Positions 16,879-34,598 of a stretch of 52,244 bases of DNA are shown here, in pieces. The position numbers were made by a program, and so were the translations under genes. The DNA lies in IMG/VR virus record IMGVR_UViG_3300044210_000063; one strand, 5' to 3'. The notes beneath the pieces were generated by a model. That model did no database searches, was not told where the DNA came from, and was given only the letters and a program-made list of their open reading frames with translations. How positions within the stretch are numbered: position 1 is the first letter of the stretch; every line of letters begins with the position of its first letter. Source of the stretch: a virus.

Positions 16879-19476
16879 ATGGCAGACGATAGACGCGAAC
16901 GAGATATGGTGCTTGCACCGAATGAATTTCTGTACGTGAGTGATGAAACGAAGGGTCACGTTGATGTTTTTGTTGGCCCGACCAAGCAGAGCCTTTCAGG
17001 TACAGATCAACCTGTTATTTTTGATGCACGCAGTAAGCGCTTCATTAAGGTTGAATTGCAAAAAGCTATCCAAGTCAACACCATTGCGCCTGAAGGGTGG
17101 TATGTGGTTCTCAAGAACCCCGCTCAGGGAGATAAACATCCAATTGGTATGGGCAAAATGAGTTCGGCAGAGTTGCTTGTCGGGCGCAAAGTCAACATAC
17201 CGGGTCCTGTGCAATTCGCTCTATGGCCAGGTCAGATGGCAAAGGTGCTGAAAGGCCATCATCTGCGATCTAATCAATATCTGCTCGTACGTGTATATGA
17301 TGAAGAAGCAGCCCGGGACAATATTACCCATGCAGTAATTAAACCTGCTGATGTGGTAAAGGAAGAAACTTCATCGGTCGTGTCCGGCGATTTGACTATG
17401 GGCAAATTGCTCATAATTAAGGGAACAGACGTATCCTTCTACATACCTCCCACAGGAATTGAAGTGGTGCCAGATGACCCCTCGGATCCAAAGAGCCTAG
17501 TGCGAAATGCCGTGACTTTGGAGAGACTTGAATATTGTCTTCTCATGGATGAGAATGGAAACAAGCGATATGAAATTGGACCGAAAGTTGTTTTTCCTGA
17601 GCCGACGGAGGTTTTTGTTGAGACCGCTGTTACCAATGCAAATGGTAGCTCCAAGAAGGCACGAAAATTCCGTGCTATTGAACTCAGTCCAAATAGTGGT
17701 GTCTATGTAAAGGTAATTGCAGACTACGTAGATGCGCAGGGTTCGCACAAGGTTGGAGATGAGCTATTCATCACTGGCAAGGATACAATGATTTACTTCC
17801 CGCGGGAAGAGCACGCAATTATCAAATATGATAATAACGATGTGCACTTTGGTATTGCTATCCCACCAGGTGAGGCTCGATACGTGCTTGATCGTGATGA
17901 AGGCACAGTAGAACTTGTGTGCGGTCCAACAGTTTTTCTTCCTGATCCACGCAAGCAAGTCATTGTTCGACGTCCACTAGATTTCAAGAATTGCAGTCTA
18001 CTGTTTCCTGGCAATGATGAAGCGGTAGCACATAACGCTGGGCTTCTTGGTATGGACGTAGCTACTTATCGGAAAATTGCTCCAGTTACCATGGTTGCCC
18101 TGTCTAGTCCGACTGAGCGCATGGCAATGCATCATAGAAGTCTGATGAAATCTGCCGATTCGATTGGTGCAGCGGCGTATTCCATGTCCTTTGCAATGGA
18201 GGATAGTTTGGAAGGGCATGGTTTATCTAATGCCGTATCTGATGAACATGCAGGTGATGCTATTCAACGTAAAACTCGTTTGACTGCGCCACGTACACTA
18301 GTTTTATCGACCAAGTATGATGGAGCAATTTCAGTCAACATTTGGACTGGATTTGCAATGATGCTAGTGCGCAAATCTGGTGAACGTCGTGTTGAAATTG
18401 GACCAAAGACTGTATTGCTTCATTATGATGAATCGCCTCAGGCAATGGAACTATCACGAGGCAAACCTAAGAGTACCAATAATTTGTTGAGCACTGTTTA
18501 TCTCAAGCTCAATGCAAATAAGGTATCCGACGTTGTGGAGGTTGAGACCGCCGATTTCTGTCGATTTGAAGTTGCAATCGCTTATCGAATCAGTTTTGAA
18601 GGTGATGATCCTCGACGTTGGTTCAATGTCGATAACTATGTGAAATATCTGTGCGATCACATGCGGTCTCGTATTCGCGCTGCAGTACAACGAGTGGGTG
18701 TGGAAGAGTTTTATCATCAGCACACAGAGATTATTCGGAAGATTGTGCTTGGTGAATCCACTGAGAATAATTTAGATGATAAAACTCCGAATTTCTTCCC
18801 CGAAAATGCGATGCGCGTCTATGACGTGGAGGTTTTGGGGCTTGTTCTTAAGAACAAAGAAGTTGAACGATTGCTCATGCAAGCTCAGATGGATGTGATT
18901 CAAAACACAGTGCAGCTGGCTACGAAACGCCAGAATTTCCGTTTTGTGGAAGAATCCGAGGCTATTGATACATCAATCAATAGGGTACGATCTGCAACGC
19001 GAATGAACACCCTGGAACTCAGGATGTCGGAGGCTTCCAGTCTGTACGAAGAGCAGCTCGATCAGCTATCTAAGCAGGCCAAAATCAATAAGGATAATGG
19101 AGCCAATGAGCTTGCGCGAGCTAGAATTAACCAAGAAGTGAATAGCGTAAACCTGGAGATCAGAAAGGCAGAAACGGACCTGACATTCGCGGAGACGCGT
19201 AATAAACAAGATTTAATGATTGTCGGACTTGATGCTCAGGTGAAGGCTGTTGCTGAAAGAGCCAGAGCTATTACACCAAATCTTGTTGCTGCGCTAAGTG
19301 CATTTAGTAAGCGTAGTATGGTGGCAGAGATGTCCAAAGCAATGGCACCGCTTGCGATTCTTGGTAAGGGCGATGGAAGTGTGATCGGCATTATAAAACG
19401 ATTGCTTGATGGTACCCCACTCGCCAAGCAACTGCAAGGGACAAACCTCGACGACGAGTACGATAACGAGGCCTGA
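16879..19476 (+). CDS. MVP: Major Vault Protein (MVP) homolog, full length (865 aa)
   Basis: Similarity runs end to end. The N-terminus parallels MVP repeat 1. Multiple vault repeats contain GPK/GPT...P(E/D)P motifs. The shoulder/SPFH-like block FEVAIAYRISFEGDDP...SRIRAAVQRV...IIRKIVLG matches human LQLAYNWHFEVND...SRVRGAVASV...IIRTAVFG. C-terminal coiled-coil cap-helix. ATG with GAGGAGAAGAG SD. Confidence 0.9.
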   Translation: MADDRRERDMVLAPNEFLYVSDETKGHVDVFVGPTKQSLSGTDQPVIFDARSKRFIKVELQKAIQVNTIAPEGWYVVLKNPAQGDKHPIGMGKMSSAELLVGRKVNIPGPVQFALWPGQMAKVLKGHHLRSNQYLLVRVYDEEAARDNITHAVIKPADVVKEETSSVVSGDLTMGKLLIIKGTDVSFYIPPTGIEVVPDDPSDPKSLVRNAVTLERLEYCLLMDENGNKRYEIGPKVVFPEPTEVFVETAVTNANGSSKKARKFRAIELSPNSGVYVKVIADYVDAQGSHKVGDELFITGKDTMIYFPREEHAIIKYDNNDVHFGIAIPPGEARYVLDRDEGTVELVCGPTVFLPDPRKQVIVRRPLDFKNCSLLFPGNDEAVAHNAGLLGMDVATYRKIAPVTMVALSSPTERMAMHHRSLMKSADSIGAAAYSMSFAMEDSLEGHGLSNAVSDEHAGDAIQRKTRLTAPRTLVLSTKYDGAISVNIWTGFAMMLVRKSGERRVEIGPKTVLLHYDESPQAMELSRGKPKSTNNLLSTVYLKLNANKVSDVVEVETADFCRFEVAIAYRISFEGDDPRRWFNVDNYVKYLCDHMRSRIRAAVQRVGVEEFYHQHTEIIRKIVLGESTENNLDDKTPNFFPENAMRVYDVEVLGLVLKNKEVERLLMQAQMDVIQNTVQLATKRQNFRFVEESEAIDTSINRVRSATRMNTLELRMSEASSLYEEQLDQLSKQAKINKDNGANELARARINQEVNSVNLEIRKAETDLTFAETRNKQDLMIVGLDAQVKAVAERARAITPNLVAALSAFSKRSMVAEMSKAMAPLAILGKGDGSVIGIIKRLLDGTPLAKQLQGTNLDDEYDNEA

Positions 19477-19494
19477 GACTAGGGCTGGAGACTA

Positions 19495-19523
19495 GGGCTG
19501 GAGACTCCCCTTATCTCCAGCCC
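19495..19523 (+). terminator. hairpin terminator candidate after the MVP gene
   Basis: GGGCTGGAGA-CTCCCCTTA-TCTCCAGCCC (10-bp GC-rich stem) followed by TTGTTAT. Preceded by a 13-bp direct repeat CTAGGGCTGGAGA x2 (19479-19504) that allows alternative pairings. Confidence 0.45.
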
Positions 19524-19576
19524 TTGTTATACGTCAGAGTCAGTGTGTACTAACCTCTAATCATGTATGGTCTTAT

Positions 19577-33538: not shown

Positions 33539-33870
33539 TTGGAATATTGTTCATATGGAAGCTGAAGCATGAAATCTGGCGATTTCATCATAGCTAGTTG
33601 CATGATCAAATCTTGTCTTATATTATCATCTTCTACAAGATAATAGAGATAATCCACAGCCAAGACCTTAATTGTTTCAGTCACGACTTCAAGGTCTTGG
33701 CTGTCAACTATTATTCTTTCTCTTAGAGGAGAGAGTGACATTTCTAAGAGCTCCTGTTCCGATAATAGGACAGGATGATCTGGTGGGCACAGTTTGCTGA
33801 GATACAGCTTCCTAGCAAAACGCTGGGCGTATGTTAGTATCCGTGCATTGAGTTCACGCAACGGGCACAC
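33535..33870 (-). CDS. hypothetical protein (111 aa)
   Basis: ATGA-coupled to the neighbouring minus-strand genes. Confidence 0.5.
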   Translation of the reverse strand: MCPLRELNARILTYAQRFARKLYLSKLCPPDHPVLLSEQELLEMSLSPLRERIIVDSQDLEVVTETIKVLAVDYLYYLVEDDNIRQDLIMQLAMMKSPDFMLQLPYEQYSK

Positions 33871-33878
33871 GGCTGTAA

Positions 33879-34598
33879 TTATACGGCCTGTGCAGTGTTT
33901 GTGTCATTCTCCACTCTTTGAAGAAGACGCTCAGCTTCCTCATCTGCAGTGTCATTAGACTGCAGCAATCTGGAATATATAGCTCCAGCACCATCGCCAG
34001 TCTTAGAAATTTCGCCTTTACCAACTGCCTTATCAAGAAGGTTATATAGAGATTGCCTGGACCATACGGAGAAGCCATCTTTGGTGGCAATTTCCGTTGC
34101 AACATGATAAATAGCAGCTGCGGTCTTATCGCCAGTTTCCAGCGCTTGGTTAATCACTTGACGCAACTCGGGACGGTTGCTTGTCTTTTTGGTTTCTGGC
34201 TTTACCTTTATAGTCTTCTTTTCTGGCTTTTCTGATTCCGGTTTTTCTTTTGGGGCTACGGATTTAGCTGGCTTTGTAGCCGGTTTTGTAGCTGGTTTCA
34301 ATACTGCTCTTGAAACTGCGGGTTTTACCTCAGGCTGTAGAGCCGCATTCGAAATCCCCATCAGTAGTGTTTGGGTTCGGGCTGCTGATCTTTGAATATC
34401 AGTAACCTTAGCATTTATTTGATCTCGAAGTCGCAAGAAACTTGCGACATTATTGTCGATGCCTCGTAGCAACTTACCAGCTTGCGCAGTAGCATTGCGA
34501 ATCTCGGTTTTTGTTTTGGTTTCGATTTTTTCGATTTTTTTGGGCGCCAACGTCGCTGGCGGTTTTGATGTTTTGATTTGTGCTTTAGGAGTTGACAT
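33879..34598 (-). CDS. basic K/P/A-rich protein with C-terminal linker-histone H1/H5-like winged-helix (H15-like) domain
   Basis: Tail PATKPATKPAKSVAPKEKPESEKPEKK. Domain ...AAAIYHVATEIATKDGFSVWSRQSLYNLLDKAVGKGEISKTGDGAGAIYSRL parallels H1 globular ...[24 protein letters not shown]. Confidence 0.5.
   Translation of the reverse strand: MSTPKAQIKTSKPPATLAPKKIEKIETKTKTEIRNATAQAGKLLRGIDNNVASFLRLRDQINAKVTDIQRSAARTQTLLMGISNAALQPEVKPAVSRAVLKPATKPATKPAKSVAPKEKPESEKPEKKTIKVKPETKKTSNRPELRQVINQALETGDKTAAAIYHVATEIATKDGFSVWSRQSLYNLLDKAVGKGEISKTGDGAGAIYSRLLQSNDTADEEAERLLQRVENDTNTAQAV

Follow-up and report, generated by a model that had tools for sequence, protein, structure and literature searches.

Major vault protein (MVP) is best known from eukaryotes. 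Bacterial homologues are on record as well (bioRxiv 10.1101/872010; PMC3762200), MVP-like genes have been reported from Borgs (bioRxiv 10.1101/2024.11.05.622173), and two MVPs of gut phages, described as the first viral ones, cluster with the bacterial proteins (bioRxiv 10.1101/2023.11.10.566534). Here, we analyzed a stretch of 52,244 bp, the IMG/VR virus record IMGVR_UViG_3300044210_000063 (the window), in which the open reading frame (ORF) at positions 16879-19476 encodes an MVP homologue. Since viral, bacterial and Borg MVPs have already been described, this gene adds to a known group. An initial annotation of positions 16879-34598 had listed the MVP, an H1-like domain and PPLP motifs as eukaryote-like features in a genome with prokaryotic signals, and had proposed a large phage of a bacterium living with eukaryotes or, alternatively, an unusual giant virus. 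This puzzle is largely resolved by the presence of one real gene of prokaryotic lineage and two look-alikes. Very probably, the contig is part of a huge tailed bacteriophage genome in the 380-490-kb class, which carries an MVP of the prokaryotic branch.

Identity and family of the MVP homologue

The gene in question is the following:

16879-19476, + strand: MVP homologue of 865 aa (Pfam MVP_shoulder and Vault_3, phmmer against the PDB, AlphaFold2 model with Foldseek)

The protein was recognized by two Pfam families, MVP_shoulder (PF11978; E 6.9e-28, 97.5 bits at a cut-off of 25, aa 547-653) and Vault_3 (E 4.7e-9, 36.7 bits at a cut-off of 28.8, aa 500-538). In a phmmer search of the PDB it matched every MVP chain (E ~5e-16, 61 bits to eukaryotic MVP). 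An AlphaFold2 (AF2) model, built from 42 homologues, shows beta-rich N-terminal repeats (approximately aa 46-363 and 472-543), a helical or disordered insertion (aa 369-470), an SPFH-like shoulder (aa 547-657) and a cap helix of ~130 residues (aa 660-791), which is followed by a short helical C-terminal tail. Its mean predicted local distance difference test score (pLDDT) is 61, with values of 80-92 across aa 480-780 (shoulder and cap helix) and of 85-92 in the shoulder. The best 12 Foldseek matches of this model in the PDB were all human, rat or rabbit MVP (E 3.6e-24 to 2e-20, 815-950 aligned columns, probability 1.00, 15-17% identity). Crystal structures of murine MVP R1-R7 were matched at E ~5e-4, and SPFH cage proteins rank after MVP (E 1e-7 to 1e-4). 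A search of the viral structure library BFVD gave no clear MVP match and only SPFH-type viral matches, namely band-7 proteins of mimivirids and pandoraviruses (E ≥ 1.7e-9); PADLOC and NCBIfam gave no match to the protein. With the Pfam cut-offs passed and a near end-to-end structural match to eukaryotic MVP, the ORF is a genuine MVP homologue, as the initial annotation had stated.

The family is large. More than 6,700 homologues were found among 90%-identity clusters, and clustering at 50% identity left 1,237 clusters (E ≤ 1e-3) or 593 clusters (E ≤ 1e-30). The nearest metagenomic relatives are 50-56% identical, several of them being located on contigs of 200-460 kb. A scan of IMG/VR with the single MVP protein yielded no matches and an alignment-based scan was required, which revealed at least 78 viral contigs with MVP (34-53% identical), many of them 100-480 kb in size. 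By tblastn, MVP was also detected in two phages of Al-Shayeb et al., of 462 kb and 735 kb, the latter being the largest phage known in 2020. The gene content of four large MVP-bearing metagenomic contigs was inspected and is phage-like: besides sigma factors, collagen proteins and an endolysin, they carry numerous orphan ORFs. In a 2026 jumbo-phage review, a full-text search did not find "major vault protein", and the numbers given here suggest that MVP is far more common in huge phages than the searched literature would indicate. One MVP-bearing contig of 463,377 bp (P0028/L089) carries many small orphan ORFs; although listed at NCBI as 'Candidatus Pacearchaeota archaeon', it resembles a huge phage that was binned wrongly.

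Among bacteria, the species genomes of GTDB contain 293 MVP relatives. Full-length identities of 45-48% were obtained to chromosomal MVPs of the cultured species Nannocystis exedens, N. punicea, Enhygromyxa salina and Thermoflexibacter ruber, and relatives occur in many metagenome-assembled genomes (MAGs) of Polyangiales, Cytophagales and Sericytochromatia. In a rough neighbor-joining tree the window MVP groups with metagenomic sequences from large contigs, beside a taxonomically coherent bacterial group. Judged by these sequence comparisons, it belongs to the prokaryotic (bacterial and phage) branch and not to the eukaryotic one; coming from this branch, it provides no evidence of contact with eukaryotes.

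H1-like ORF, PPLP run and the proposed link to eukaryotes

The other two eukaryote-like features of the initial annotation are located in the following ORFs:

33879-34598, - strand: 'H1-like' ORF, a clade-specific putative nucleic-acid-binding protein
24128-26989, + strand: family-A DNA polymerase (PolA) with a 3'-5' exonuclease domain (Pfam DNA_pol_A 1.5e-64)

The AF2 model of the 'H1-like' protein consists of an N-terminal helix (aa 30-86), a disordered tract (aa 91-138) and a three-helix domain (aa 145-192), which in this model is possibly a winged helix. The tract (nt 34185-34328) contains 14 K, 8 P and 6 A in 48 residues. Homology to H1 failed in every search: Pfam gave no Linker_histone (PF00538) match even at E ≤ 10, phmmer against PDB sequences gave nothing significant, and Foldseek reached a best E of 0.82, its weak matches being winged helices of MarR, ORC and Rok and not H1. 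With hhalign, the comparison to the globular domain of chicken H5 resulted in a probability of 1.3% over an 18-column 'SRQS' stretch. This stretch and the lysine-rich tract are probably the source of the H1 impression. The 14 homologues of the ORF are all metagenomic and all without Pfam domains, and the gene is syntenic in three relatives of the window (L006, L168 and L171). By composition, the protein does share with the linker histones H1/H5 a K/P/A-rich tract beside a small helical domain. Its basic tract is, however, not C-terminal but located between two folded parts, its domain order and long N-terminal helix differ, and no homology to the globular domain is detectable. Bacterial lysine-rich 'histone-like' proteins form another comparison group for such a tract.

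The PPLP motifs correspond to the run PPPPLPPPLPPPLPPP at nt 26684-26731. It does exist, but it lies within a Pro-rich linker of PolA (aa 782-888, nt 26471-26791), which connects the polymerase domain with a C-terminal domain of ~65 aa. A Pro-rich linker is kept in the relatives and the C-terminal domain as well, but the sequence of the linker differs in each of them (PTPTPT in L006, unrelated in L005), so that a meaningful motif is not supported. Thus, after profile searches two of the three eukaryote-like assignments were lost and MVP was kept. The two lost items resemble eukaryotic features in composition only and are silent on any link to eukaryotes.

A phage of a eukaryote-associated bacterium, such as an amoeba symbiont, which would have obtained MVP, H1-like domain and a WW-ligand PPLP motif from the eukaryotic partner, is therefore very unlikely. 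It is true that MVP is mostly associated with eukaryotes and that the gene is real, and that both the K/P/A-rich tract and the PPLP run exist. Yet the identity of the window protein to eukaryotic MVP is only 15-17% (61 bits), compared to 45-56% for its closest metagenomic and bacterial homologues, and the MVP-carrying bacteria belong to free-living Myxococcota, Cytophagales and Sericytochromatia rather than to endosymbionts. Moreover, the relatives with known sampling sites originate from groundwater and a lake, no test recovered H1 homology, and the PPLP run is part of an unconserved linker. With its MVP in the prokaryotic branch and its other two items failing in profile and fold searches, the idea of a bacterium living with eukaryotes was not upheld.

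Genomic setting of the MVP gene and origin of the contig

The MVP gene and an orphan ORF of 211 aa occupy a slot between the genes for DnaB and for a primase-related Zn-ribbon protein. The slot and its edges comprise these features:

13854-16727, + strand: DnaB helicase with intein (Pfam DnaB_C, LAGLIDADG_3 and Intein_splicing)
16728-16878, + strand: region upstream of MVP, with an exact TATAAT at 16850-16855 and a Shine-Dalgarno (SD)-like GAGGAG 7-12 nt before the ATG
19477-19530, + strand: terminator-like element, GACTAGGGCTGGA twice, then a 10-bp GC-rich hairpin (GGGCTGGAGA...TCTCCAGCCC) and TTGTTAT
19577-20212, + strand: orphan ORF of 211 aa, sharing the variable slot with MVP
20262-20891, + strand: DnaG-type CHC2 Zn-ribbon protein, primase-related (Zn_ribbon_DnaG 2.3e-5), downstream edge of the slot

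All of the six relatives in which the slot was compared (L005, L006, L168, L169, L171 and LR745208) lack MVP at this position; there, the DnaB and primase Zn-ribbon genes are adjacent or split by unrelated ORFs. In the whole genome of LR745208, no MVP was found by tblastn at E ≤ 1e-5. The absence from six of six relatives could be explained by an assembly chimera or by a contaminating bacterial fragment. This explanation is extremely improbable: an independent Logan assembly (SRR35899655, 11,677 bp) is 100% identical to the window over positions 11090-22766, from DnaB over MVP, the orphan ORF and the primase-like gene to DnaJ, and includes both MVP junctions, which therefore are no assembly artefact. 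Furthermore, GC content and GC skew are continuous across MVP, and the gene is common on other huge-phage contigs.

The TATAAT at 16850-16855 is a candidate MVP promoter, as judged from the sequence. A consensus scan for promoters and terminators around MVP found no full -35/-10 pair on the + strand, and its counts were not above shuffled expectation. Directly after the MVP stop codon, the exact tandem duplication of GACTAGGGCTGGA (19477-19503) forms the 5' arm of the hairpin, for which a putative terminator role can be assumed; the consensus scan skipped this element (19477-19530) because its T-tract is weak. Given the hypervariable slot, the own ribosome-binding site and the downstream hairpin, we infer that MVP may be an accessory cargo gene, which moves among huge phages and bacteria.

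The orphan ORF 19577-20212 has no match in Pfam, PHROGs or PADLOC and no tblastn match in any of the fetched relatives. In seven IMG/VR contigs (L091, L093, L096-L099 and L101) an ORF of ~239 aa adjoins MVP, downstream in four and upstream in three of them; no relation of this family to ORF 19577-20212 was detectable. Clustering of the neighbors of 82 phage MVP loci revealed nothing common beyond close relatives, and in 80 bacterial MVP loci only generic kinases, histidine kinases and ABC ATPases were shared. A DnaJ gene is found near MVP also in three Myxococcales/Nannocystaceae MAG loci (L029, L037 and L055) and in an unclassified bacterial MAG (L086), in the latter ~3.5 kb upstream of MVP, compared to 2 kb downstream in the window. 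This proximity is probably a coincidence, because the phage DnaJ gene is syntenic in relatives without MVP.

The origin of the contig can be derived from its relatives. IMGVR_UViG_3300012980_000004 (393,220 bp) shows 23 collinear gene matches over positions 9.6-39 kb of the window, with a PolA of 72% identity. The collinearity extends from ORF 9661 through DnaJ, PolA, the sigma-like factor and a carbon-nitrogen hydrolase to an HD-domain gene (38560-39225). Further collinear IMG/VR contigs have sizes of 377, 139, 134 and 132 kb. In addition, the gene order of the replication block is shared, with seven gene matches, by LR745208.1, where it is found on the opposite strand: a 50-kb stretch of this record contains, ordered as in the window, a tail-fibre-like gene, SNF2, a homologue of ORF 12928, DnaB, the primase Zn-ribbon gene and PolA. 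LR745208.1 (GWB1_PHAGE_COMPLETE_CIR-CU-CL_55_23) is a complete, circular and manually curated phage genome of 485,034 bp from Rifle groundwater (PMC7162821), and it is among the best phage-database matches of both PolA and RecA. The large phage of the initial annotation is thus supported by collinearity with the 393- and 377-kb contigs and with a complete 485-kb phage. LR745208 and the 393-kb contig differ from the window in the absence of MVP from the DnaB-primase slot and in their intein and homing-endonuclease content; the name of LR745208 indicates ~55% GC, compared to 47.8% in the window.

Besides the genes at the slot and PolA, the following replication, nucleotide-metabolism and tail genes were identified:

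708-5363, + strand: tail-fibre-like protein of 1,551 aa (phrog_1101 tail protein, 1e-5)
10827-12962, + strand: SNF2-family helicase, first gene of the conserved block, syntenic in all relatives (Pfam SNF2-rel_dom 5.6e-32 and Helicase_C)
21618-22658, - strand: full-length bacterial-type DnaJ with J domain, Zn-finger region and C-terminal domain (Pfam; TIGR02349 2.4e-75)
28783-29763, + strand: dCTP deaminase-like enzyme (Pfam DCD 6.1e-34, aa 109-287), syntenic in L168 and L171
32031-32708, + strand: divergent sigma-70/ECF-like factor (Sigma70_r2 2.5e-5, 24.4 bits at a cut-off of 24)
40061-40786, + strand: collagen-repeat protein of the phage tail-fibre type (Pfam Collagen; PHROG tail-fibre families to 3.3e-18)
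45828-47177, - strand: RecA/UvsX-type recombinase (Pfam RecA 1.2e-36)
48720-49445, - strand: RuvC-like Holliday-junction resolvase (phrog_159 3.4e-14)

The contig has a GC content of 47.8% and ~52 ORFs with a coding density of 95.6%; according to profile searches, the majority of the ORFs are orphans. The prokaryotic coding signals of the initial annotation were recovered. Start and stop codons overlap by 4 bp in nine cases, seven ATGA and two GTGA, and the TTG/GTG starts of DnaB, the primase Zn-ribbon ORF and ORF 20916 were called identically by an independent gene caller. SD-like motifs precede 15 of 52 longest-ORF starts, compared to 10% at random positions, with clear motifs upstream of MVP and DnaB. 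SD use is genuine yet partial and does not extend across all genes. No tRNA was found in the whole contig, no Rfam family was matched, including vault RNA, and no rRNA or housekeeping metabolic operon was found.

An unusual giant virus of eukaryotes, a Nucleocytoviricota-like virus with many bacterial-type genes, would be in line with the band-7 matches of mimivirids and pandoraviruses in BFVD, as MVP/SPFH-type proteins occur in such viruses, and the window contains no capsid gene which would settle the matter directly. The probability of this origin is nevertheless close to zero. Across the whole contig no hallmark of nucleocytoplasmic large DNA viruses was found: its ~50 ORFs include no family-B polymerase, D5 primase-helicase, A32 ATPase, double-jelly-roll capsid or multisubunit RNA polymerase. 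Instead, the window encodes PolA, DnaB, a DnaG-type Zn ribbon, RecA, RuvC and a sigma-like factor, shows SD sites, 4-bp overlaps and tail-fibre-like genes, and is collinear with a complete curated phage genome.

Improbable, though less remote, is a bacterial chromosome, megaplasmid or Borg-like element that combines phage-like replication genes with a bacterial MVP. In its favor, capsid, portal and terminase genes are missing from the 52 kb, both bacterial chromosomes and Borgs contain MVP-like genes (bioRxiv 10.1101/2024.11.05.622173), and IMG/VR as well as MAG bins can misclassify. However, the contig has mostly orphan ORFs and lacks tRNA, rRNA and housekeeping operons, and its closest relatives are a curated complete phage and five IMG/VR viral contigs. 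It also carries the 1,551-aa tail-fibre-like gene, a collagen-like tail-fibre gene, and a dense set of homing endonucleases together with an intein, which is typical for large lytic phages.

Some points weigh against a huge phage with a vault protein. Among the contig ORFs, terminase, portal, HK97-fold capsid and tail-sheath genes were not found. The missing virion hallmarks are uninformative, because the fragment represents about one eighth of the expected genome. The phage call is based on synteny with genomes whose classification as phage was made by others, and on the tail-fibre-like genes. The large MVP-bearing contigs were taken as phage after a check of gene content in four of them and, for the rest, by IMG/VR membership, and the 393-kb and 377-kb relatives were examined for MVP only in the flanks of PolA. 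Finally, the pLDDT of the N-terminal half of the MVP model is 30-55, a low confidence that makes any count of the vault repeats tentative.

For a huge phage of this kind, hints to the host are limited. The taxonomic profile of LR745208 (75% unknown, 10% Spirochaetes, 4% Proteobacteria) falls short of a clear host call (PMC7162821). A 15-kb contig of a 'Methylobacter sp.' MAG (DATBQC010000966.1, L009) carries an MVP of 48% identity, RuvB and homologues of the window ORFs 50069-50965 (49%) and 51032-51847 (39%). Here, a fragment of a related phage was probably binned into a bacterial MAG; otherwise, the contig would be a weak host hint. Partial SD use is a mild argument against a Bacteroidota host.

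Within the replication block, the DnaB gene contains an intein of 443 aa (aa 423-865, nt 15120-16448) with a LAGLIDADG homing endonuclease and canonical junctions (Cys1, His-Asn, Cys+1). It is present in L006 and L171 and absent from L005 and L168; the intein-less orthologue of a relative has 506 aa. The intein-bearing DnaB of the initial annotation is thereby confirmed, and so is its DnaJ, which is syntenic in the relatives with 27-36% identity. Inside the PolA gene of LR745208, intein-like matches were observed (~15.3-17.4 kb of L087); inteins therefore move between replication genes of the clade. PolA shows 72% identity to L168 and 61-67% to L005, L006, L169 and L171, and the best phage-database matches of RecA include the huge phages LR756511 and LR745208. 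The assignment of the primase Zn-ribbon ORF is weak (TIGR01391 1.3e-4, below cut-off), its identity being 40-46% across all relatives. Translation of the dCTP deaminase probably starts around aa 105 of its longest ORF. For the sigma-70-like factor, region 2 is barely over the cut-off and was the only region detectable with Pfam and NCBIfam profiles; region 4 was not found. Here, phrog_1740 (4.7e-5) was matched as well, and TIGR02937 of the extracytoplasmic function (ECF) superfamily stayed below cut-off (1.8e-5); the ORF is 52-60% identical in relatives. RuvC was recognized by phrog_159, with the NCBIfam RuvC profile below cut-off (2.3e-4), and is located outside of the part to which the initial annotation had assigned it. 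A second, small J-domain protein (35040-35372, + strand, DnaJ domain E 6e-5) is encoded directly upstream of the carbon-nitrogen hydrolase gene (35369-36151), with an ATGA overlap.

The remaining annotated features are mainly putative mobile endonucleases:

22696-24150, + strand: Zn-ribbon and MTES_1575/DUF559 endonuclease (Pfam), abutting the 5' end of PolA
26950-28767, + strand: Zn-ribbon/MTES_1575 paralogue fused to a GNAT acetyltransferase domain (Pfam), abutting the 3' end of PolA, in a 57% GC patch
36965-38563, - strand: Zn-ribbon/MTES_1575 paralogue (Pfam)
47020-48723, - strand: Zn-ribbon/MTES_1575 paralogue (Pfam)
51849-52190, - strand: partial copy of the Zn-ribbon/MTES_1575 family
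39384-40043, - strand: pyroglutamyl peptidase (Peptidase_C15), homologues 50-68% identical

The endonucleases combine tandem CxxC zinc ribbons with a MTES_1575/DUF559 (Vsr-like) domain and vary in their C-terminal add-ons (GNAT, MazG-like or DUF4379 treble-clef fingers). Since their presence and position differ among relatives, they are suggested to be free-standing homing endonucleases. The GC content peaks at 57% in positions 26001-28000, compared to ~47% elsewhere; this peak covers the Pro-rich PolA linker and the endonuclease-GNAT ORF and may be a recently acquired insert. The tail-fibre-like ORF has tblastn matches in LR745208, in the annotated tail fibre of Tunturiibacter phage Tunturi_5 and in gp420 of Bacillus phage G, and is 32% identical over 1,258 aa in L173. 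It is followed by an ORF of 1,186 aa (5585-9145, + strand), for which searches of Pfam, PHROGs, PADLOC, NCBIfam and the phage database gave no match. Next to RecA, ORF 44419-45753 (- strand) encodes an SMC/OLD/GajA-like P-loop ATPase, detected by its N-terminal Walker A region only (E ~1e-7), which may be an SbcC-type repair protein or defence-related. Recent acquisition of the pyroglutamyl-peptidase gene from the host was considered and rejected. Its homologues are located on contigs of 436,316, 439,200, 72,720 and 24,120 bp, sizes equal to those of MVP-bearing contigs, and on one of 393,220 bp, the size of the closest relative. This suggests a shared accessory pool of huge phages rather than recent host capture. 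In L005, the homologues of ORFs 38560 and 43096 lie almost side by side, and the block 39384-43066 (peptidase, collagen-like gene and four orphan ORFs), which looks like a second variable island, is missing.

Possible role of the MVP and comparison with known systems

The conserved replication and nucleotide-metabolism block of the window is interrupted by mobile elements, namely the DnaB intein and four Zn-ribbon/MTES endonuclease genes, and it holds the MVP gene together with the orphan ORF in the DnaB-primase slot. For the protein, we propose that it would homo-oligomerise into a closed barrel or dome-shaped cage in the cytoplasm of the infected cell. The chances that the protein forms such a cage appear about evenly balanced from the model; it is the most likely outcome because the shoulder and cap helix are the best conserved and best modelled parts, and drive closure in vaults and SPFH proteins. 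The cage might sequester host or phage macromolecules during infection, as counter-defence or as storage compartment, which is our leading guess on its role and a doubtful one. Somewhat less doubtful, though still tentative, is the general idea that MVPs are widespread, horizontally mobile accessory genes of huge phages, which build vault-like cages inside infected bacteria. If true, these cages would be a second type of phage-built compartment beside the chimallin nucleus, and would make the long-unresolved vault function accessible through a tractable prokaryotic system. A phage-borne MVP, encoded by a single gene without partners in a bacterial setting, is directly testable. The presence of a vault protein gene on a phage contig does not in itself point to a giant virus or to a host associated with eukaryotes.

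Compared to eukaryotic MVP (PDB 4V60, 9BW6 and 9Z4W), the window MVP is alike in architecture and length (861-893 aa versus 865 aa here) and shares the N-terminal beta repeats, the SPFH-like shoulder and the long cap helix. However, it is identical in only 15-17% of positions and contains an extra segment of ~100 residues (aa 369-470). None of the eukaryotic vault partners TEP1 (TROVE), vPARP and vault RNA was found among the window ORFs or in the Rfam scan. An assembly of the window MVP like that of vaults, a closed 78-mer shell with 39-fold half-vaults, is predicted from shoulder and cap helix. These two parts also match structurally the SPFH/band-7 cage formers (HflK/C, flotillin, prohibitin, stomatin and QmcA), which form closed domes via a C-terminal helical barrel. 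In contrast to the window MVP, these are membrane-anchored and have no long N-terminal repeat array. The match of the window protein to MVP is far better.

The MVPs of the gut Caudoviricetes ctOa11 and ct2Ri15 (bioRxiv 10.1101/2023.11.10.566534), set beside the window MVP by description, are likewise phage proteins without TEP1 or vPARP and with a variable neighborhood. They did not appear in the tblastn search with the window MVP at E ≤ 1e-5. Both originate from the human gut and were placed near Firmicutes phages, whereas the window represents an environmental huge-phage lineage with the 485-kb groundwater phage as a relative. The bacterial MVPs of Myxococcota, Cytophagales/Microscillaceae and Sericytochromatia are collinear with the window MVP, 820-900 aa long and 45-48% identical, with the same domain order and, as here, without a conserved operon partner. 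In the rough neighbor-joining tree, phage and metagenomic MVPs stand apart from these chromosomal proteins. The bacterial genes are part of chromosomes in genomes of 10-13 Mb, whereas the MVP gene of the window is located inside a phage replication module.

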